64,000 bases of DNA from an uncultured Planctomycetota bacterium (GTDB lineage: Bacteria > Planctomycetota > Phycisphaerae > Phycisphaerales > SM1A02). Shown here one piece after another: positions 41,727-56,008 of this stretch. A model generated the notes under the pieces. The model worked only from the letters and a program-made list of their open reading frames with translations, made no database searches and was not told the DNA's origin. The translations under genes were made by a program, and so were the position numbers. The stretch lies in contig CAVONJ010000004.1 of assembly GCA_963697235.1 (NCBI GenBank), positions 48,781 through 112,780 on the forward strand. The letters are read 5' to 3'. Position 1 is the stretch's first letter. Every line of letters begins with the position of its first letter.

Positions 41727-42907
41727 ATGGCCCAGATCCAATCGCCGCTGCTCTCCTCCGCCACGATCGACGCGGCCCGCACTCGTCTTCGGCGGATCGC
41801 CGACAGCCTGCCCGAACACCGGATCGATGCGATCCTGATTGGCACGGAGAAGGACATTCTCTACCTGACCGGGTTCATCGGGCACGACAGCCTGCTGCTG
41901 GTGATGCCGGGAACCTCGGTGATCATCACCGACGCCCGCTACGACGAGTTTCTCGATCCCTGGCGCAAAGCTGAAGTGCTCGAGGTGATGATTGGAACGC
42001 GGCACCGCCTCGAGCATGCCGTCAAGGACCTGTGCCGGTCCAGGACGATCCGTCATTTGGGCTTCCAGGCCGATTCGCTCACCGTGAGCCGCCAGCAGCG
42101 ACTCGCAGCGGCCCTCGGCGATTCCGCGCTGCACGCCACCGAGGGAATCGTGGCCGGATTGCGTCGCGCAAGGACGAGCACGAGATCGGTCGGATCGAGC
42201 AGGCGATCCGCTGCCAGGAAGAGGCGATGGCTGCGGCGCTGCCATACCTGCGAACGGGCATGCGTGAGCTCGAGTTCGCCGCCCGTCTCGAGTACGAGAT
42301 GAAGATGCGCGGAGCGCTGAAGTCGAGCTTCGATCCGATCATCGGGGCGGGAAGCAACAGCTCGATCATCCATCACCAGACCGGCTCCACGCCGATTGGG
42401 CCCGGACATCTGCTCGTCGACTGGGGCGCGATGACTCCCGACGGCTACAACTCCGATCTCACCCGCACGTTCGGCCTTGGGCCGATGACCGACAAGTTCG
42501 CGAGAGATCTACACGATGGTGCTGGAGGCGCAGCTCGCGGCCATCGAGGCGGCTCGACCCGGACGGACGTGTGCCGAGATCGACGCGGTCGCCCGCCGCC
42601 GATCATCCGCAGCGCCGGATACGGCGACTACTTCACGCACGGACTCGGTCATGGTCTGGGTCTGGACGTGCACGAGAGCCCGTACTTCAACGAGCTGCAG
42701 GACGACGTGGTGCTCGAACCGGGCATGGTCATGACGGTGGAGCCAGGCATCTACCTTCCAGGCATCGGGGGGGTGCGGATCGAGGATGACGTGCTGATTA
42801 CCGAGTCCGGCTCGCGGGTGCTGAGCCACTGGCCCAAGATCACCGGACTCTGCGGTGATCGAGCCGGGGAACGTGCCCGCGTCCGTGGGCTGAGGACGAT
42901 TCGATGA
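41727..42907 (+). CDS. pepP: Xaa-Pro aminopeptidase / M24B metallopeptidase, at least 3 frameshifts
   Basis: DILYLTGF...[16 protein letters not shown]...YNSDLTRTF...[16 protein letters not shown]...[27 protein letters not shown]. Stop overlaps the accB start (ATGA). Confidence 0.75.
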
Positions 42908-43423
42908 TCGACATTCGCAAGCTCAAGGAGCTGGTTCGACTGATGGTCGCGAACGATCTGACGGAGCTCGATCTCCGCGACAGCGAGGAGCAGGTGACGC
43001 TGCGCCGGCCCGGGCCAGCTCCGACCGTTGCTCCAGCGACTCCAGCCGCACCGGTTGCATCAGTCGCACCAGGCGGATCAGGTGGATCCGGTGCCGCACA
43101 CGACGTGTGGCCGCCGGTGCTCGCGAACGAGACGGCGGGCGCGCACCCGCCGCGACCGCGTCGGGGGCCCGAAGGATACGGCGCTCATCGAGATCGAGAG
43201 CCCGATGGTCGGCACCTTCTACGCCAAGCCGAATCCGGACGCCGCGCCGTTCGTCAGCGTGGGAACCCGGGTGACCCCGGACACGGTCGTCTGCCTGATC
43301 GAGGCGATGAAGATCTTCAACGAGATCAAGGCCGAGTGCGCGGGCACGATCGAGCGGGTCCTGGTCGACAGCGGCGATCCGGTCGAGTTCGGCCAGCCGC
43401 TCTTCCAAGTCCGGAGTGGCTGA
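42904..43423 (+). CDS. accB: Biotin carboxyl carrier protein of acetyl-CoA carboxylase, frameshifted
   Basis: N-terminus [25 protein letters not shown]-terminus [13 protein letters not shown]...[39 protein letters not shown] (biotinyl-lysine AMK motif). Confidence 0.8.
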
Positions 43424-43440
43424 ACGCCGCGGGCCTTCCC

Positions 43441-44817
43441 ATGTTCTCACGCATCCTGATCGCCAACCGGGGCGAGATCGCGCTGCGGATCATCCGTGCC
43501 GCGCGCGAGCTGGGCATCGAGACGGTGTGCGTCTACTCCGAGGCCGACCGCAGACGGCCCGTGGCTGGAGCACGCCGACCAGACGGTCTGCATCGGACCC
43601 GGTCCCGCCTCCGAGTCGTACCTGCGGATCGACCGCATCATCTCCGCCGCGGAGATCAGCGAACGTCGACGCGATCCACCCCGGCTACGGGTTCCTCGCG
43701 GAGAACGCCCACTTCGCCGAGGTCTGCCGCGACTGCCACATCGAGTTCATCGGCCCCAGCCCCGAGGCCATGGGGCGTGCTCGGCGACAAGATCAGCTGC
43801 CGCAAGATGGCCAAGCGCGCGAAGACGCCGATCTTCCCCGGCAGTCGCAGACGCGCATCGAGGACGAGGATGAAGCGGCCCAGGTCGCCGACGAGATCGG
43901 CTACCCGGTGATCGTGAAGGCGTCGGCCGGCGGCGGCGGACGGGGCATGCGCATCGCCCACAACGAGATGGCCCTGCGGGCGAGCGATCAGCGCCGCCCG
44001 TCAGGAGGCCGAGGCGGCCTTCGGCAACGGCGCGGTCTACATCGAGAAGTTCCTCGAGCGGCGCGCGGCACGTCGAGGTCCAGGTCCTCGGGCGACAAGC
44101 ACGGCAACGCGGTGCACCTGTTCGACCGCGACTGCTCGTCGCAGCGGCGCCACCAGAAGCTCATCGAGGAGGCGCCGGCGCCGGGCGTCGACCGACGCAA
44201 GCGTCGACGCGGTGGCCAAGTCGGCGGCCGAGCTCATCCGCCAGGCCGACGTACTCCGGGCGCGGCGACGGTCGAGTTCCTGATGGACGACGAGCAGAAC
44301 TTCTACATGCTCGAGGTCAACACGCGCGTGCAGGTCGAGCACCCGGTCACGGAGATGATCACCGGCATCGACATCGTCAAGGAGATGATCCGCGTCGCGG
44401 CGGGGGAGCCGCTGAGCGTCAAGCAGGAGCGACGTCAAGGTGAACGGCCACGCGATCGAGTGCCGGATCAACGCCGAGGATCCCGACCGCGGCTTCCTGC
44501 CCCAGCCCGGGCTCGATCGAGTGAGTTCGACGTGCCCGGCGGCCCCGGGGTGCGCGTCGACACGCACGTGCGGCCGGGCTACCGGATCCCGCCGAACTAC
44601 GACTCGATGATCGGCAAGCTCATCGTCCACGGCGCGAACCGCGAGGAGGCGATCGCCCGCATGCAGGCGGCGCTGGCGGAGTTCGACATCGGACCGATCA
44701 AGACGACGATTCCGCTCCACCGGCGCATGATGGAACATCGCGAGTTCGTGCGACGCCGAGTTCGACATCCACTACGTCGAGCGAATGCTCAGCGGGCAGG
44801 CGGCGATCGTCGGCTAG
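43441..44817 (+). CDS. accC: Biotin carboxylase, at least 8 frameshifts
   Basis: [29 protein letters not shown]...[16 protein letters not shown]...[18 protein letters not shown]...[26 protein letters not shown]...[18 protein letters not shown]. Stop TAG lies inside the left terminus of MITE copy 2. Confidence 0.85.
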
Positions 44818-44975
44818 TGCGGTGTCGGGTCAGAAGTTCGTTGAATATCGGCGAGACAAGTGTCGTGCTGGAAGGCGCAGCACGACGGCATACCTGGCGT
44901 CCGATGAGCGGCGACAAAGCCACGCGCAGCCGCAGCAGATGCGAATGACTTCTGATCAGAACGCCTAGCGGCCAG
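44813..44975. mobile_element. MITE-like element, copy 2
   Basis: ggctagtgcggtgtcgggtcagaagttcgttgaatatcggcg...gaatgacttctgatcagaacgcctagcgg. Shares the CTAG-tcagaagttcgttga terminus and internal blocks (atatcggcg, gacggcatac) with copy 1; ~70% identical overall. Sits between the convergent accC and cvpA-like stops. Confidence 0.55.
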
Positions 44976-46548
44976 TCACCATCAGATTGCAGGTTCCCAG
45001 CGTCTTGTCGCCGACCTTGAAGCCGACGAGGGTGGCCCCCTCGGTCACGCGGAAGTAGAGCATCAGCTCCTGGGTTCCCGCCGTGGGCAGAATCGGCAGC
45101 TGGTCGAGCGTGCGAACGTACGTGCCGGGTGCAAGCACGATGTCGGTGTCCGTGCCCTTCTTCAGGATGTATCCCAAGGGTGAATACGTGTTGCCCTGGG
45201 AGTCGACCATTGCCATGACCGCGTCCTCGGCAAGCTGACCGCGCAGGGATGATCCGAAGAGATCGGTGACCTTTCCACGGCTGACGTCCAGCGTGACGAT
45301 GCGCGTACCGGGCGGCTCGTAGATGCCCTTGATCTGAAGGGCTCGCGAGATCAGGCCGGGGCTGCTTCCGAATGTGCCGGTGCCCTCAACGAGGTAATTC
45401 TCCTGCTCCTTCATCGTCCCCGGCAGCGAGTTGGTGCTGATCTTGATGGGCCGGATCGAGTTCGAGATGCGCAGATCGCTCTCCGGAATCGGACGGGCGG
45501 ACAGCTCCACCGTCTCGCTGCCGCCGGTCGAGGTGCTCAGTCCCGCGCCGCTGAGCAGTCCGCGGCGGGAACGGCTGCGGTGCCGGCAGACGATACCGGT
45601 TGTTCTTCACCTGAATGTACTTGGGGACGAAGTTCGCCGGGATCTTGAAGAGGATGGTGGCGGCGGCATTCTCCCGCCCGGGGACCGAGGTCACGTAGTG
45701 GGCGATGTTGTCGAAGCGGTAGAGCGTCCCGTCCTGTGCCCACATGTCGGGGTGAACGACGGGGGCGGCCGCCCATCCGCGGGCGGCGCCGATCAGTCGG
45801 ATCTGCGAGTTCGCGATCGTGAGCTGCTCGCCGAAGTCGAGGGCCGCGCCGTCGAATTGCATGTCGACCGCCGCGCGATCGCCGCCCGCGTTGTAGAGCA
45901 GCCCGGTCACCTTCGCGGCCGAAGGCACCATCACGATCTGCCCCTTGCCCTCCTGGTACGAGTCCCGGACCAGCGACGCCTGCCAGTTGAGCCGGGGAGC
46001 GACACGGCGCATCGGTTCGGGCGACCACATGGAGGTCACGCTCAGCCAGCTGTAGAACTCGGCGGTCCAGTAGGAGACGGGGATCCACATCGGCTGGTTG
46101 CTGAAGCGCACGACGCTCCCGTCGCGTCCGGAGCGGCCGTAGCCGCGATACCCCATGAGTTCGCTCTTGCTCTGGAAGAACCCGCATCCGATGACGATGA
46201 TGCCGACGGTCAGGATCCCCGCGCCGGCGCCCAATGGAAAGCCGAAGGTGAGGTTGGCCCAGTGGGGCAGGTCGACGTTCGCCGGGGCGAGCCGGTCCGT
46301 GATCAGTCGCAGGAGGAAGAGGGTGATCGCGAAGACGCCGAGCAGCGTCACGCCCCAGGCGTAGTTGTCGAACCAGCCGCCGCGGAGCAGGAATCCCGTG
46401 ACCAGCGGCTCCCACACGCCGAAGGCTACGGCGCCGGCGACCACGACCGCGAGCAGGTGAAGCAGCGCGAGAACACCCCCTGATTCGCCCACCAGTAGGC
46501 GATGATCAGGACGAACAGAGTCAGCACGATGTTGAAGATGTAGATCAT
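44965..46548 (-). CDS. CvpA-like (colicin V production family) 4-TM membrane domain fused to a ~380-aa C-terminal extracytoplasmic domain, frameshifted
   Basis: MIYIFNIVLTLFVLIIAYWW...SALLHLLAVVVAGAVAFGVWEPL...LLGVFAITLFLLRLI...GAGILTVGIIVIGCGFF, then a non-membrane domain of unknown family (...IKGIYEPPGTRIVTLDVSRGKVTDLFG...LMVTGR*). Confidence 0.45.
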
Positions 46549-46612
46549 GACGCTCTTCGAATCAGGAATCACATGACGTGGCCGGCTTCCCGGGACGTGC
46601 CCGCGCCACAGG

Positions 46613-48278
46613 TCACGCCGCCTGGGAACTGCCCGACTTCGCCGGCGCCGTGACCCGGATGACTTCTTCGATCGTGGTCTCGCCGTTCAGCACCTTGCTG
46701 AGCGCCGCCTCCTGCAGGTAGATCATCTTGTGGCGGCGGGCGTGGGCCAGGGCGCCCTTGAGATCGCCGGCGCCGAGCATCTTCCGCGCCTCGTCGTCGA
46801 CGAGAAAGACCTCAAAGGCCGCGGTCTGTCCGAGGTAGCCGGTGCCGCCGCAGACCGGGCAGTTCTCGATCTTGTTCTTGACCTGCACCTTGCCGCTCGA
46901 GCGGTAGAGCTGCTTCGCCCGGTCCGAGGGCAGGTTGAGCTTCTTGAGCTGTTCGGGGGAGGGCTGATACGCCTGCCGGCAGTTGGGGCAGAGGGTGCGC
47001 AACAGACGCTGGTTGGTCACGGCCCGCAGCCCCTTGGTCGCCTGCTTGACGTCTCCGACCAGCTTCACCCAGATTCGGATCTCGTCCACGATCGTGTCCG
47101 CCACCAGCGGAACGTAGAGCAGCGGTCCGTACATGCCCGGATCGGTCGCCACCTGGGCCGCTTCCGGCTCCTTGATGACGTCGGTCAGGACGAGGTCCGG
47201 ATCGCGACGGAGAATGGACTGCAGATTGGTCGCGTAATCGATGTCCGGGTTCGTCGGGATCGAACTTGACGTGGTCGATTCCTTCGATCCGCCGCTGCAC
47301 GTTGCGCTCGAGGGTCTTGATGTTGGCCGTGTACGCGTCGTGCCGACTCACGAAGCTGTATGCCGACGTCGTGAGCCCGTGCCCGGAGGGGCGCCGATCA
47401 GGACGATGCCGTGGCGATCGTGCGGCTCGGTGATCGACTTCAGGCTCTCCATCTGCGACGGCAGGAGACCGAGCTCGTCGAAGGATCGGGTGAGCCGCTT
47501 GGCCCGATCGAAGTCGATGCGGATCATCTGACCGGTGGACGAGCCGGCGGTCGTGAGATCGATCTCCACCCGTCCGCTCGGGCCGTTGAGATGGAATCGC
47601 CCTGCCTGCCGCCGCCGGCGATCCTGTACGTCGAGGCCAGCCGATCTCCTTGAGATAGTCGATGAGAGCCACGGCCGACTCGACCGGCACCGGCTCGCGC
47701 TTGTATCGAACACCGTCGATTGATCTGGGAGACGGCGGTTCCGTTGGGACCGATGGCCATCTCGATACGCGAGGCGCGAGCCTCCAGTGCGGGACCGAAG
47801 ACGTCCTCGGCGAGCATGTGCGTGGCGTAGCGGGGATCTTCTTTGGCGGGAATGGCGGCGCCTCGCCAGCCGAGTTCGTGAACTGGATGATCGCATCCCG
47901 CGCCGCCCGCGCCTGCTTGCGAGAGGCCATGCGCTCGCCGAGCGACGCACCGGAGAGCTCGAATCGTTGCGACTCGGGCACCGCCTGGTTGCGGACCCGC
48001 CAGTAGACGAGGATCGGCGCGAGCAGAACGATCATGCCCACCGCGATTCCGACCCCCGGCACGGGAATGAACAGCATCGCCAGGAGCGCGGCCACCCCGG
48101 CTGCCATGTGGATGCCGTTCCACATCCGGTAGTTGAAGTGGAAGTAGCGAGCGTCCTTGTCGAGCTTGGACGAGATGAGCCATGCCCAGGGCACGAACGG
48201 CAGGAACATGATGAGGGCCATCCACCAGCCCACCAGATAGCCGCTGCTGACCTGCGCCAGAATGATCTCACTTCGCAT
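46613..48278 (-). CDS. GspE/PilB-family protein with an N-terminal 3-4 TM region and a degenerate Walker A (predicted pseudo-ATPase), at least 3 frameshifts
   Basis: N-terminus MRSEIILAQVSSGYLVGWWMALIMFLPFVPWAWLI...AAGVAALLAMLFIPVPGVGIAVGMIVLLAPILVYW. Core HGIVLIGAPSGHGLTTSAYSF...ANIKTLERNVQRRIEGIDHVKFDPDEP replaces the canonical GPTGSGKTT Walker A and TIEDPVE. Intact tetracysteine motif CPNCRQAY...CPVCGGTGYLGQTAAFEV. Confidence 0.55.
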
Positions 48279-48298
48279 GAGGGGGCTCGTCGGGAGGT

Positions 48299-49447
48299 CA
48301 GCTGATGCCCTTGAGGCGCATCTTCAGCTCTTCGGGCTTGGGCGTCGCCTCCAAGGCCACCCGGTGGTGAATGTATTCGGCCTCGACCAGCTCCACAAGC
48401 GAGCTGGTGAAGTCGATCATGCCCTCCTCGCGGCTCTTGCGTGATGATGTCGAGCAGTTCGCCTTCGCGGCCCTCGAGGATGTACTTCTGCACGATCGGC
48501 GTGTTGAGCAGGATCTCGATCGCGGGAATGCGGGGGATCTCTTCGTGAAGCGTCGGCAGCAGCTTCTGGTAGACGATCGAGCGGAGGTTGTAGGCCAGCA
48601 GCTTGCGAATCTGTTCGCGGTCTCCCTCGGGGAAGAGGTCGTAGATGCGGCCGAAGGTCTGCCAGGCGGAGGAGGCGTGGATCGTGCCGAAGACGAGGTG
48701 ACCGGTCTCGGCCGCGCGGATGGCAGCCTCGAACGTCTCGTGGTCGCGCATCTCGCCGACCAGCACGACGTCGGGATTCTCGCGGACCAGGGCCCGCAGG
48801 GCCTCGTTGAAGTTGAGGCAGTCGATGCCGACTTCGCGCTGGTTGATGGTGGCCTTGTCGTCCTTGAAGATGTATTCGATCGGATCCTCGATCGTGACGA
48901 TGTGCACCCGCTTCCGCTCGTTGATGTACTGGAGCATCGATGCGATCGACGTGCTCTTGCCCGAACCGGTCACGCCGGCGAAGAGGATCAGGCCCTGGGC
49001 GCTGAGGGAGATTTCGCCGAGCGCCTCGGGCAGGTAGAGATCGTCGAACCGCTTGATGTTCGAGGTGATCAGACGGGCCGCCAGCGAGGGCTTGCCGCGG
49101 GCCATGAAGAGGTTGATGCGGAAGCGGTTGTCGTCGTCGTAGTCGTAGGCGAAGTCGATCTGACCGTGGTGGAGGAAGTGCTCGTACTGGCGGTCGTCGA
49201 GCAGGTCCTTGGCCATCTGGAACATGAGGGGCGGCGTGCAGAGGTCCGTCTGCAGGCTCTTGAGCGCGCCGCGGACGCGGATGCGCGGCGGCAGATCGAC
49301 CTTCACGATCAGGTCGGACGCCTCGTAGCGGATGGTGGCGTCGACGTACTTCTTGAACATCCGCTCGCCCTCGCCGGGTGCGGTTCCCTGATCGTGATGA
49401 ACAGGCGGGGCGACGTCTTCGAAAGCGACTTCCTTGATCGTGCTCAC
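48299..49447 (-). CDS. pilT: Type IV pilus retraction ATPase PilT/PilU family, one frameshift near 48440
   Basis: RBS GAGGAG then GTG. LILFAGVTGSGKSTSIASMLQYINERKRVHIVTIEDPIEY...VLVGEMRDHETFEAAIRAAETGHLVFGTIHASSA...C-terminus ...EEGMIDFTSSLVELVEAEYIHHRVAL. Confidence 0.85.
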
Positions 49448-49802
49448 GGGTGGTCTCCTCTAGCCGCAAGTGATTCCGCAGGTGGGCTCCGCAGGTGGGT
49501 CCGACACGGAGGCTCGGCCCGGCGAGCACCGGCCGAATTCCCTCCTCTACCTTTCGCATCCGCCGCCCTCTTGGTGGCAGAGGATCCGGACATCCAAACC
49601 ACACAGGAATCCCACGGAGCCGCCGAGACGCCTCCCTCCCGCCGGTTCCCGGGGGCCATGTTCCGGAACGCTCAAGGTACCAGACCGTCCGATCGAGCGG
49701 AATCCCCGCCCCCGAAACCCGGGACCGTCTCGAGTTTCTCGTCAGCGGATTGCAGTCGGCTGCGCACTGGGCAATCGGCCGACCGCGGTGGTTCACCCGC
49801 GC

Positions 49803-52800
49803 CTATGTCGACACCGCCTCCGCTCCTGACTCGGACGGCCCCTTCGCTGGCGCCGCTGCCGGCACGCCGCGCAGCTTCTCGCTGACTCCCTGGATCACCC
49901 GGTAGAGCACGGGCACGCTCACCACACTGACGACGGTAGCAACGAGCATGCCCCCGAAGACCGTCGTGCCGATCGCCTGGCGGCTCTCGGCGCCGGCGCC
50001 GCTGGCCACCAGCAGCGGGATCACGCCGAGGATGAACGAGAAGGCGGTCATCAGCACCGCCCGGAAGCGGATCCGCGACGCCTCGAGCGCCGCGTCGACG
50101 ACGCTGAGGCCCTCCTCTCGCTTCACCTTCGCGAACTCGACGATCAGGATCGAGGTCTTGGCCGAGAGGCCGATCAGCAGCACGACGCCGATCTGGGTGT
50201 AGACGTTGTTGTCGATCTGACGGATCATCAACGCCGCCACCGCGCCGAGCAGTGCCGTCGGCACGGCAAGGCAGACCGACACGGGAATCGTCCAGCTCTC
50301 GTACTGGGCGGCGAGCACCAGATAGACCAGGATGATCGAGAAGAGGAAGATCACCGCCGCCTGACCGGAGGCCTTGTTCTCCTGGTAGGAGAGATCCGTC
50401 CACTCGTATCCCATCGAGGGAGGCAGCTTCTGGTCGGCCATCTGCGACAGAATCTGCATCGCCTGGCCCGAGGTGTAGCCGGGAGCGGGCTGTCCGCTGA
50501 TCTTGGCGGAGGGATAGATGTTGTGGTGGAAGACCGTCTGCGGACCGAGCACCTCCTTCACGGTCATCAGCGACCCGAGCGGAATCATGCCGCCCGCCGG
50601 TGCGCGGACCTCCAGCTGCAGGATGTCGTCCGGCTTCAATCGGTACTCGCTCTCGGCCTGCGCCCGCACCTGGTAGATCCGACCGAACCGCGTGAAGTCG
50701 TTGACGTACACCGAGCCCAGGTACGCCTGGAGCGTGCTGAAGACATCCTGCAGGGGGATATCCAGCGAGCGAACCTGCTCGCGATCGATCTCGACGAAGA
50801 GTTGGGGGATGTTCGCACGGAAACTCGTAAACATGCGGGAAAGCCCGCTCTGCGCGTTGCCGTCCTCGACGAACTCGTTCGCCACTGCCTCGAGTTGCCG
50901 CAAGCCGGTGCCGCCGCGATCCTGAAGCTGGAGCGCGAATCCACCGGCAGCGCCGAGGCCAGGCAGTGAAGGGGTCGGGAAGGCGATCACCACCGCCTCC
51001 TGGATCTGAGCGAGTTCGGCGTTGAACTTTTCGAGCAGGGCGTTCTGGTGCAGACCGGGCGCGGACCGCTCGCTCCAGGGAATGAACGTGCAGACGACCG
51101 TGCCAGCGTTGGACGCAAACGGCGCCGTCGATGAGCGAGTAGCCTCCGATCCCGATGACGTTCTCCGCGCCGTCGGTTCCCATGAGGATTGCGGTGACCC
51201 GATCGACGACTGCATTGGTGCGTTCCAGCGAGGCGCCGTCCGGAAGCTGGATGTTGACCATGCGCCCAACCCTCGTCCTCCTGGGGCACGAATCCGGTGG
51301 GCAGCTTGGCGAACCCGAAGACCGCGAGGCCGATGAGGCCGATGAAGACGATCAGCCCGATCACCGCCACCCGCAGGGCGCCGCGGACGACGCTGAGATA
51401 GCCGACGGTGGTGCGCTCCAGGAGCGTGTTGAACCAGCGGAAGAGGATGAAGGGCTTCTTCTGCGTGGGCCGCAGCAGCACGCCGCACAGCGCCGGGCTC
51501 ATGGTGAGCGCGTTGATCGAGCTGAAGATGGTGGCGATCGAGATCGTGACCGCGAACTGTCGGAACAGCTGCCCGGTGATGCCGCCCAGGAAGACGGTTG
51601 GCACGAAGACCGCGAGCAGGACCAGCGTGGTCGCGATGACCGGTCCGGTCACCTCCTCCATCGCCTTCAGCGCCGCCTCGCTTGGCGTCGGTCTCACCCT
51701 CGTCGAGATGGCGGGTCACGTTCTCGACCACGACGATCGCGTCGTCGACCACGATGCCGATCACGAGCACCAGACCGAAGAGCGTCAGCTGGTTGATCGA
51801 GTAGCCCAGTGCGGCCATGACCGCGAAGGTCCCGATCAGCGACACCGGAATCGTGACGGCCGGAATGAGCGTGGCCCGGAAGTTCTGCAGGAAGAGGTAG
51901 ACGGTGAGCACCACGAGGACCAGCGTGATGAAGAGGGTCACCACCACTTCCTCGACCGACGCCCGGATGACTTTGGTGGAGTCGTAGGCGATCGTGTACT
52001 CCAGCCCTTCGGGAAAGACGCGCGACAGCTCGTCGATCTTCGCTCGCACGCCTTCGGCCACCTCGATGGCGTTGGCGCCGGGCAACTGGTAGATGCCCAT
52101 GGCGCACGTCGCCTTGCCGTTGAACGTCGCGCTGACGTCGTAGGACTTCGAGCCCAGCTCCACGCGGGCCACGTCCTTGACCCGAACAAGCTCCCCCTCG
52201 TCCCCGACCCGCACCACGATATTCTCGAACTCCTCGACGTTGCTCAGCCGCCCCTGTGTGTTGACCGTGAACTGAAACGCCTGCCCCTTCGGCACCGGAG
52301 GCTGGCCGATCTGACCGGCCGCCACCTCCACGTTCTGATCGCGCACGGCGGCGACCACGTCGTTCGTGGTGAGCTCGAGCGCCTTGAGCTTGTTCGGATC
52401 GAGCCACACCCGCATCGAGTAGTCGCCGGTGCCGAAGACCTGCACGTCGCCGACTCCCCGGATTCGGCTCAGCTCGTCGCGGATGAAGAGCGTCGCGTAG
52501 TTGGACAGGAAGAGATCGCTGTAGCGTGTCGTCGGGGGAGCTCAGGCAGACGAAGAGCGTCGTCTCGCTGGACTGCTTCTTCACCGTGACGCCTTGTCGC
52601 GCAACCTCCTCGGGAAGCTTGGGCTGTGCCGTGGAGACGCGGTTCTGAACGAGCACGTTGGACATGTCCAGATCGGCGCCGACGTCGAAGGTGACGGTGA
52701 GGTTCATCGTCCCGTCGGCGGAGCTGACGCTGGTCATGTAGGCCATGTCCTCGACGCCGTTGATCTCCTGCTCGATCGGCGTCGCCACGGTCGATGCCAC

Positions 52801-52972
52801 CGTCTCCGCGTTCGGCGCCGGGATAGACGGCCGCCACCTTGATCGTGGGCGGCGCGATCTCCGGATAGCGGGCGATGGGCAGCGCGAACAGAGCAATGCC
52901 GCCGACCAGGACGATCACGATCGAGATCACCGACGCGAAGATCGGACGCTCGATGAAGATGCGACTGAACAC
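49803..52972 (-). CDS. RND efflux transporter permease (AcrB/CzcA family), more than 8 frameshifts
   Basis: N-terminus MFSRIFIERPIFASVISIVIVLVGGIALFALPIARYPEIAPPTIKVAAVYPGA. Middle VEIAEGVRAKIDELSRVFPEGLEYTIAYDSTKVIRASVEEV. C-terminal 6-TM bundle. ~1056 aa. Confidence 0.8.
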
Positions 52973-52986
52973 GTTTCGCCTCTCGG

Positions 52987-54163
52987 TCAGCCTGTTCCGC
53001 CGCCGTCCCCGGGACCACTTCCGGAACCATCGCCGGCATTCTTCGACTGGGCGCTCGCGGCCGCGGTCGCCTCGACGGCGTTCACCGTCAGGCCCGGCCG
53101 CGCCCGCTGGAGGCCGTTGACGATGACCCGCTCGGACGGATCCAGACCGCCCAGAATCACCCGGTCACGATCGTCGAGACTGCCGAGCTCCACGTCGCGG
53201 CGCTGCACGGTGCCGCTCCCGTCGACGACGAGCAGGAACGGCCCGACGATGTCTCGCTGCACGGCGATCTCCGGCACCAGCATCGCCACACTCGAGCTCC
53301 GGGGAACGCGGATACGCGCGAACAGACCGGGGAAGAGCTGACCCTCCGGATTTGGGAACGTCGCCCGAACCTGCAACGTGCCGGTGGTGGGATCCACCCG
53401 GTTGTCACCGAAGTCGACCGATCCCGGCGCGGCGTAGGCGCTCCCGTCGGCGAGAATCAGCAGACAGGTATGAGTCAGCGTCCTGTTCCCGCTCCGAACG
53501 AGGGTGCTCTCGGAGGATCTCCACGAGGAACCGCTCGTTGATGTTGAAGTACGCGTAGATCGGATCATCGTCCACGACGTTCGTGAGCAGCGTGGAGTCT
53601 CCAGCTCCCACGAGATTGCCGACGGTCACGAGCTCGCGGGAGACGTTCCCCGTGATGGGGGCAACCATCTTCGTGTAGCTCAGGTCGATTCGGGCGTTCT
53701 CGAGCTCGGCCATCGCGCCGCTGACGGCCGCCGCGGCGACGTCGCGGTTCGCTTCCTTCTCCGCCAGCTCGATCTCCGTCACCGCCTGCTTTTCAAAGGC
53801 CCGCGTCGCCCGCTCCAGCGTCGACCTCCGCCAGCTTCAGGTCGGCTCTGCGGCTCTCCAGCCGGGCCTCCGCGAGGGCGACCGGCCGCCTGGAACGGCG
53901 CCTCGTCGATCGTGAAGAGGGTCACCCCCTTCTCGACGCGGCGACCGGGCTCGAACTCGACGCTCTCGAGGAACCCCTTGACCCGGGCCCTGATCTCCAC
54001 CGTCTCGAAGGCGTCGAGGCGACCGGTGAACTCGTCGTACACGGTCACCTCCCGCTCCATCGGCGCGGCGACGGTGACCGTCGGCGGCGGCGGGGGGGCG
54101 AACTCGTTGCTGGCGGAGCAGCCGGTCAGCAATCGCGACCAGCCCGGCGAATCTGATTCTCAT
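52987..54163 (-). CDS. RND efflux membrane fusion (periplasmic adaptor) lipoprotein, frameshifted
   Basis: Lipobox LLTGC. ...VTVYDEFTGRLDAFETVEIRARVKGFLESVEF...KMVAPITGNVSR...VDGSGTVQRRDVELGS... Confidence 0.7.
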
Positions 54164-54260
54164 CAGTTCCCTCGACGAATGGACCGCTGCGCCATGCTAA
54201 CAGGTGCGAGACAACCGCGGGGCCGTTGACAGCGCCCTTCCTCGCGGGGATCATTGATCA

Positions 54261-55765
<1,505 letters not shown>

Positions 55766-55784
<19 letters not shown>

Positions 55785-56008
55785 GGGTGCCCCGAACGCG
55801 AGAGGTCTCTCGAGGACGAACCACCGGCGAGACTCCCCGGCTCCCTCACCCGGCTCGCTGTGCGAGCCTGACCTCTCCCCCGGGAGAGGGCAGGGTGAGG
55901 GTGCCCCGAACGCGAGAGGTCTCTTGAGACAACACACCGGCGAACTCCCCGGCTCCCTCACCCGGCTCGCTGTGCGAGCCGACCTCTCCCGGGGGGAGAG
56001 GTGACGAG
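55766..56008. repeat. Tandem structured repeat: two ~115-bp units (~90% identical) plus a 18-bp partial third
   Basis: Each unit begins with the hairpin cctctccc-cc-gggagagg, followed by gcagggtgagggtgcc...ggctccctcacccggctcgctgtgcgagcc. Shares the hairpin motif and the ccctcacc block with repeat family 1 at 23885 and 26953. Confidence 0.65.

Follow-up and report, generated by a model that had tools for sequence, protein, structure and literature searches.

The window analyzed here is a stretch of 64,000 nucleotides from an uncultured Phycisphaerales bacterium of the phylum Planctomycetota (assembly GCA_963697235.1, contig CAVONJ010000004.1, positions 48,781 to 112,780 of the forward strand). 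On its minus strand it carries a gene, at 48278..46613, for a protein that resembles the GspE and PilB secretion ATPases, has an N-terminal membrane anchor and shows degenerate catalytic motifs; it is referred to below as the pseudo-ATPase. The gene lies between a gene for a PilT-like ATPase and a gene for a CvpA-like membrane protein. The family that it represents is well supported, conserved and unusual in its architecture, and a full-text search of the literature returned neither a description of this family nor any link between PilT and CvpA. The family is thus apparently undescribed, and it is conserved in Phycisphaerae. The gene and its parts are given below, the product having been stitched across frame switches.

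46613..48278, minus strand: membrane-anchored GspE-like pseudo-ATPase gene; stitched product of 554 amino acids, five 1-base indels in the window copy
48000..48239, minus strand: N-terminal anchor with three transmembrane helices (TM1 48239..48171, TM2 48113..48060, TM3 48050..48000)
48170..48114, minus strand: conserved cytoplasmic loop SKLDKDARYFHFNYRMWNG between TM1 and TM2
47492..47841, minus strand: N2-type domain of GspE/PilB, including AGLDVQDRRRRQAGRF at 47638..47594, with two frame switches inside
47367..47395, minus strand: degenerate Walker A, GAP(S/P)GHGLTT, with Leu (CTC, 47375..47373) at the place of the catalytic Lys
47295..47345, minus strand: family-specific motif and degenerate Asp box RHDAYTANIKTLERNVQ, TLERNVQ for TVEDPIE
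47156..47212, minus strand: Walker B region LRRDPDLVLTDVIKEPEAA, TDVIKE for canonical VGEIRD
47096..47146, minus strand: degenerate His box TDPGMYGPLLYVPLVAD, where EpsE has TGHLVMSTLHTN
46850..46990, minus strand: tetracysteine zinc subdomain (CPNC 46990..46979, CPVC 46861..46850)

Family membership and fold

T2SSE (PF00437) was the sole Pfam domain in the stitched protein (E 3e-38, 131.8 bits against a gathering cutoff of 24.9, residues 158-541), and no N1E/T2SSE_N/MshEN docking domain was seen. A profile built from 19 members matched EpsE/GspE (E 1e-57), PilF (E 1e-52) and PilB (E 1e-46) in the PDB over residues 151-545, so that the GspE/PilB-type protein named in the original prediction is indeed encoded on this strand. 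The search with the stitched protein matched 421 homologues at 43-71% identity, and all those listed carry PF00437. The best 120 of the 421, with lengths of 541-593 amino acids and 57-71% identity over 94-100% of the query, stem from metagenome-assembled genomes (MAGs) of Planctomycetota and Phycisphaerales; the databases label the homologues as GspE, PulE or TadA ATPases.

Closer classification was based on the orthologue from L001, a complete Phycisphaerales MAG (CP070772.1). The closest NCBIfam models are those of GspE and PilB, and the orthologue scored 167 bits against the GspE equivalog TIGR02533 (cutoff 630), 145 bits against the PilB equivalog TIGR02538 (cutoff 676) and 29.8 bits against the PilT/PilU subfamily TIGR01420 (cutoff 319). 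Homology together with the zinc subdomain places the protein in the GspE/PilB clade.

Residue conservation was read from an alignment of 82 sequences, i.e., the orthologues from 81 species-level genomes plus the window copy. It peaks in the RecA core and the C-terminal subdomains (mean top-residue frequency 0.65-0.70), the RecA core being more conserved than the N2 domain. The latter aligns to EpsE residues 118-218 and was modeled by AlphaFold2 (AF2) with a predicted local distance difference test score (pLDDT) of 75-90; R221 is invariant in it, Q224 is found in 79 of the 82 sequences, and the canonical DGR arginine is lost. At the zinc site, C430, C433, C473 and C476 are present in all 82 sequences and align to the CxxC pairs of EpsE, and a family-specific insertion of about 10 residues relative to EpsE (GKVQVKNKIEN, 46894..46862) precedes the second CxxC. 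The retention of the GspE fold elements and of the Cys4 zinc site, which had been proposed from the window alone, is in agreement with these alignments.

Degenerate catalytic motifs

The peptides on which the claim of degeneracy had been built (GIVLIGAP with GHGLTTSAYSF, TLERNVQR, TDPGMYGPLLYVPLVA and CPNC...CPVC) are all present in the sequence, and a hidden Markov model (HMM) alignment to EpsE maps them, as proposed, onto Walker A, the Asp box, the His box and the zinc motif. In Walker A, GPTGSGKSTT of EpsE corresponds to a family consensus GAPpGhGLtTT. The column of the catalytic Lys holds L in 73 sequences, I in three, M and S in two each, A and V in one each, and K in none; the degeneracy is therefore family-wide. 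A profile made from the first 150 residues retrieved sixteen much more distant members, in which the position is taken by Q, L, R, S or G and never by K. The replacement of Lys by Leu in the window copy stands as originally described, although the codon is CTC and not CTG.

The Asp box, TVEDPIE in EpsE, has the family consensus TLEREIE: its first Glu (E324) is kept in 82 of 82 sequences, the Asp has changed to R, K, Y or H, and the Pro to E. Beside the Walker A loop lies a new, near-invariant motif, R-H-D-A-Y-x-x-N-I-K-T-L-E, in which H313, D314 and E324 occur in every aligned sequence and N319 and K321 in 81 of 82. For Walker B, VGEIRD of EpsE is matched by a variable consensus vdeikd (LVLTDVIKE in the window); the position of its Glu is occupied by D (41), E (14), Q (6), L (5) or T (4) among the 82 sequences and by Val in the window, while RRDPD in the same region is invariant. 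The His box (TGHLVMSTLHTN in EpsE) reads kGPliyvpqkla in the family consensus and YGPLLYVPLVA in the window. Pro takes the place of its first His in 73 of 82 sequences, its second position is variable (P in 24, R in 23, Q in 11, N in 11, H in 7), and L386 and Y388 in this region are invariant. With respect to the four GspE/PilB catalytic motifs (Walker A, Asp box, Walker B and His box), the window protein conforms to none.

The pseudo-ATPase gene evolves with a ratio of nonsynonymous to synonymous substitution rates (dN/dS) of 0.08-0.22 in seven closely related pairs, compared to 0.03-0.15 for PilT, the most constrained gene of the cassette, and 0.06-0.08 for guaB. Given the family-wide loss of catalytic residues under purifying selection, the gene encodes, by sequence criteria, a conserved pseudo-enzyme that falls in the GspE/PilB branch of the secretion-ATPase superfamily and is predicted to be catalytically inactive.

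An alternative is that the protein represents a non-canonical P-loop protein that still binds nucleotides or is weakly active, and that works as a sensor or switch set by ATP, ADP or another phosphorylated ligand. The conserved Gly-rich loop G-x-x-x-G-[HQ]-G-L-T-T with the next Thr, the near-invariant motif that adjoins it, the Asp-box Glu retained throughout, an acidic residue at the Walker B Glu position in 55 of 82 sequences and the higher conservation of the RecA core over N2 are what one would expect of such a protein. On the other side, the Walker A Lys is absent from all 82 sequences and all 16 distant members, the His box is gone, the acidic residue of Walker B is dispensable (the window has Val, other members Q, L or T), and K321 would, judging from residue alternation, sit on the strand face opposite E324. 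We consider a sensor of this kind unlikely.

Gene integrity and assembly quality

The list of open reading frames (ORFs) splits the gene into products of 488 (46812..48278), 200 (47348..47950) and 179 amino acids (46613..47152) in three different frames, and in a three-frame translation of 48278..46613 the sensible peptide hops between frames five times. A frameshift-aware protein-to-DNA alignment against the closest homologue (P0001) placed the switches near 47854, 47721, 47642, 47382 and 47258, and over 548 amino acids the stitched protein is 71% identical to P0001. The assumption that the motifs are read within a single frame, as made in the original prediction, has to be given up; one of the five frame changes falls inside Walker A. 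ORF-level or single-frame readings of this window are unsafe, and frameshift-aware translation is needed.

The same alignment procedure detected 12 frame switches in accC (AccC), three in guaB (IMPDH), two in BCCP, two in the downstream CvpA-like gene and one in the PilT-like gene, giving a total of 25 switches in six genes and approximately 7.7 kb, the essential accC among them. Switch density in accC and guaB is similar to or above that in the pseudo-ATPase gene. As essential neighbours are also frameshifted, the window is an assembly rich in indels. The frame switches are errors of that assembly without biological meaning, and the gene is no pseudogene. Single-base indels fill the region 42900-55800 of the window (accB 42904-43414, accC 43441-44790, guaB 54261-55740, and an RND pump at 49803-52900), and further ones are visible in its AcrB-like ORFs.

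The Walker A switch near 47382 lies in the base run GCGCCCCTCC, where one base is missing, and the Walker A strings GIVLIGAPSGHGLTT and GIVLIGAPSGHGLTTSAYSF are stitched readings across it. A single indel restoring the Walker A Lys was considered and ruled out: the two bases between GGC and ACG ACG can, with one base added, encode only L, I, V, F, S, Y or C.

The five switches, with one inside Walker A, could suggest that the motifs or the frame result from a sequencing or assembly artefact, or that the window holds a decaying pseudogene of an ordinary GspE/PilB. We regard this as extremely improbable because the essential neighbours are equally or more frameshifted, the gene is under purifying selection, and the Lys is out of reach of a single indel. 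In addition, homologues from other, independent assemblies are uninterrupted ORFs with the same degenerate motifs, and hence neither GxxxxGK[ST] nor TIEDPVE is restored where the sequence is intact. The pseudo-ATPase gene is accordingly a real and functional one.

The N-terminal membrane anchor

The N-terminal transmembrane anchor claimed for the window protein is part of the same polypeptide and comprises three helices in every complete member. It spans residues 14-94, with AF2 helices at 18-45, 50-70 and 74-99 (pLDDT 73-85) and a mean hydropathy of 1.4-2.0. K+R counts were 0.0 in the N-terminal tail, 3.2 in the loop SKLDKDARYFHLN..MWN and 8.5 after TM3. These clear positive-inside counts lead to a predicted topology with the N-terminus outside, three transmembrane helices and the GspE-like body in the cytoplasm. 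Residues W31, K41, D42, A43, W53, N54 and P72 of the anchor are invariant. One Phycisphaeraceae homologue of 727 amino acids (P0294, L086:6001-8184, NCBI MCC7193505.1), with GQGQTT as its Walker A, has a signal peptide and about 170 amino acids of an extra domain before TM1, an extension in keeping with an N-terminus on the outside.

A profile of the anchor only gave 382 matches at E <=1e-3 among 1.84 billion cluster representatives. Within the best 150 of these that were listed, the long matches (535-727 amino acids) all have the same architecture, with the transmembrane region fused to the ATPase-like body; a stand-alone or otherwise fused anchor was sought among the same 150, and the six short matches inspected were fragments or frameshifted calls. 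Judged by these matches, the anchor is not encoded as a small ORF of its own and does not serve as a domain in other proteins. In this family, the N-terminal docking domain of the soluble GspE/PilB proteins is replaced by three transmembrane helices, which puts the ATPase-like body at the cytoplasmic face of the inner membrane.

Conservation of the gene cassette

The genes on both sides of the pseudo-ATPase gene, and the motifs of the PilT-like product, are located as follows.

48298..49447, minus strand: upstream PilT-like ATPase gene, frame switch at 48436, 80% identity to the PilT of L001
48976..48953, minus strand: GVTGSGKS of the PilT-like product, intact
48766..48743, minus strand: VLVGEMRD of the PilT-like product, intact
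48706..48677, minus strand: TGHLVFGTIH of the PilT-like product, intact
44965..46548, minus strand: CvpA-like membrane protein gene, about 527 amino acids, frame switches at 46469 and 45484

Read along the minus strand, the PilT-like gene (49447..48298) is followed after a gap of 19 nucleotides by the pseudo-ATPase gene (48278..46613) and, after a further 64 nucleotides, by the CvpA-like gene (46548..44965). The PilT orthologue of L001 reached 401 bits with TIGR01420 (cutoff 319), and among 72 full-length PilT orthologues Walker A and the His box are intact in all and Walker B in 71.

This arrangement was compared across 81 distinct Phycisphaerae loci, of which 79 cover the upstream and 80 the downstream flank. 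A full-length PilT gene is the same-strand neighbour directly upstream of the pseudo-ATPase gene in 73 of 79 (approximately 93% of informative loci), so the adjacent PilT noted in the window recurs, as an intact ATPase gene, in most genomes. The CvpA-like gene follows the pseudo-ATPase in 80 of 80 loci and also in five divergent ones. Four of these five have all three cassette genes and the fifth lacks an adjacent PilT; the downstream genes of two of them were confirmed as homologous to the CvpA-like partner by hhalign (E 8e-54 and 2e-33). It is thus this downstream protein, absent from the original prediction, that accompanies the pseudo-ATPase in every informative locus.

The cassette has housekeeping genes around it, for example guaB, accBC, a hisF-like gene and murD. 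It usually lies between guaB and accC, and in distant members the flanks switch to the hisF-like gene and murD with the cassette kept; the strict synteny with such genes argues against a mobile defence island. No GspF/PilC (T2SSF), pilin, prepilin-peptidase or secretin was found among the Pfam-annotated genes within 6-10 kb at seven homologous loci, nor were these pilus and secretion families found among 10 large ORFs of the window, which encode housekeeping functions.

Two further genes were observed next to the cassette. In L001 (13766-15847), a gene for an HDOD-GGDEF-PilZ protein is inserted between the CvpA-like gene and accC; it is not present in the window or in most other loci, and may hint at control by cyclic di-GMP in the L001 lineage. 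In the window, a frameshifted gene for an AcrB-type resistance-nodulation-division (RND) transporter (49803-52900, minus strand) separates the PilT-like gene from guaB, a position at which it is not found in L001 and L002.

Six lineages (L015-L019 and L084) have no PilT next to an intact pseudo-ATPase. In the five-species clade L015-L019, the pseudo-ATPase gene retains a dN/dS of 0.18-0.22 despite the PilT deletion. Directly upstream of it, a remnant of the last 40-70 PilT codons (...MIDFTRSLVDLVEREYIHTPVA..TPKP..LKMRLKGIS*), open and 56-79% identical to the tail of full PilT, was observed at L015:2059-2199, L016:1569-1709, L019:1010-1150, L017:3623-3841 and L018:5752-5940; these codons may have been retained as a mini-ORF or an interaction peptide, or may be just the scar of a recent deletion. 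The distant lineage L084 (8001-10886, on a 1.8-Mb contig) has GHGQTT as the Walker A of its pseudo-ATPase, no adjacent PilT, and a partner of 377 amino acids without the last domain.

These lineages, together with a CvpA-like gene that comes next in every locus covering the downstream flank, divergent ones included, would suit a pseudo-ATPase that acts mainly with the CvpA-like protein and independently of PilT, e.g., as a cytoplasmic cap or regulator of a CvpA-type channel, the adjacency of PilT then being secondary. However, PilT stays adjacent and on the same strand in the great majority of informative loci across deep divergence, has the lowest dN/dS of the cassette, and might be encoded elsewhere in the six exceptional genomes. 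Independence from PilT is therefore also, in our estimate, an unlikely account.

The CvpA-like partner

The CvpA-like partner, approximately 530 amino acids long across the loci, consists of four N-terminal transmembrane helices followed by a beta-rich part of approximately 400 amino acids in all. Its membrane domain matches Pfam Colicin_V weakly (E 1e-5 to 0.05, below the gathering score), and NCBI names it as CvpA family. The partner was modeled with a pLDDT of 93, and the model had no relative among solved structures. CvpA has been predicted to be a four-pass protein whose C-terminus lies in the periplasm and varies in length, and its function described as largely unknown (bioRxiv 10.1101/2020.09.25.314492). 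By homology, the large C-terminal domain of the partner is probably periplasmic, an assignment resting on these published predictions because its own positive-inside charge count is ambiguous.

A proposed membrane-fixed adaptor for PilT

We propose, with a probability of roughly 55%, that the pseudo-ATPase is a non-catalytic, membrane-fixed adaptor linking the PilT motor to the CvpA-like protein. It would form a membrane-fixed ring or other assembly, being probably oligomeric like its relatives, with no ATP hydrolysis of its own, and would recruit the soluble PilT hexamer. The ATP-driven movements of PilT could then be passed via the transmembrane helices of the pseudo-ATPase to the CvpA-like protein and its periplasmic domain. 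In such an arrangement the pseudo-ATPase may take over both the anchor role of GspL/PilM and the platform role of GspF/PilC.

Several observations weigh against this proposal. The former active site is among the best-conserved parts of the protein (G301, T304, H313, D314, K321, E324 and RRDPD all being invariant or almost invariant). Such conservation would be superfluous in a pure scaffold, and a ligand may therefore still be bound there. The link to PilT and to the CvpA-like protein is one of gene adjacency, and the six lineages described above dispense with the adjacent PilT. The placement of the partner's large domain in the periplasm follows the published CvpA predictions, its own charge count being ambiguous. 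Finally, in the AF2 model of the stitched protein, computed from a 19-sequence alignment, the anchor and N2 are confident and residues 262-554 (approximately 47490-46613) have a pLDDT below 50. A shallow alignment is probably behind this failure in the RecA-like C-terminal half, whose fold consequently rests on sequence homology; Foldseek matches of the model to EpsE, PilF and PilB had TM-scores below 0.35 and contributed nothing beyond it.

If the adaptor model is true, secretion-ATPase motors would be put to a new use, by a conserved, membrane-integral, non-catalytic member paired with an intact PilT and a CvpA-like protein, and a CvpA-type protein would gain its first functional context. 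A broader scenario, possible rather than probable, is that PilT, the membrane-anchored dead GspE-like protein and the giant CvpA-like protein constitute an unrecognised, pilus-independent envelope machine that belongs to the core of Phycisphaerae and related Planctomycetota. An ancestral pilus-extension ATPase would here have become a membrane-embedded stator or adaptor, through which PilT would work mechanically on a novel-fold domain in the periplasm, perhaps serving the homeostasis or remodelling of the envelope. Independently of mechanism, the labels GspE, PulE and TadA in public records inflate the inferred type II secretion and pilus capacity of Phycisphaerae MAGs, and this family has to be kept apart from the GspE, PilB and TadA ATPases.

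Comparison with known systems

The secretion-superfamily ATPases GspE, PilB and PilT are soluble motors that act as hexamers and depend on platform and docking proteins. With GspE/EpsE and PilB/PilF, the pseudo-ATPase shares the N2 domain, the RecA-like C-terminal domain and the tetracysteine zinc subdomain. It differs from them in having lost the Walker A Lys and the His box, in its degenerate Asp box and Walker B, in carrying three transmembrane helices instead of an N1E/MshEN docking domain, and in the insertion of approximately 10 residues before the second CxxC. Unlike in GspE/PilB systems, no GspF/PilC, GspL/PilM, pilin or secretin genes were seen near the annotated loci. The CvpA-like partner resembles CvpA, the colicin V production protein and an inner membrane protein linked to envelope stress, in its four-helix membrane domain, as far as the weak Colicin_V match goes.

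The PilT/PilU pair is similar to the cassette in that two paralogous proteins of the secretion superfamily, one of them a canonical PilT, are placed side by side, and PilU, a PilT-dependent accessory ATPase (PMC6762196, PMC6821130), offers a precedent for such a partnership. PilU is, however, a soluble protein of the PilT clade whose catalytic motifs are intact, whereas the pseudo-ATPase is membrane-anchored, has lost these motifs and groups with GspE/PilB by homology.

A comparable three-part logic is found in the archaellum, where ArlI, ArlH and ArlJ (FlaI, FlaH and FlaJ) unite an active secretion-superfamily ATPase with a catalytically impaired, RecA-like partner and a polytopic membrane protein. 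The KaiC-like ArlH is soluble and retains a Walker A lysine, ArlJ is a homologue of GspF/PilC, and the archaellum builds a filament; ArlH and ArlJ are not homologous to the partners in the cassette. PilU and the archaellum trio are the nearest functional analogies to the PilT, pseudo-ATPase and CvpA-like cassette; neither is homologous to it in the relevant parts.

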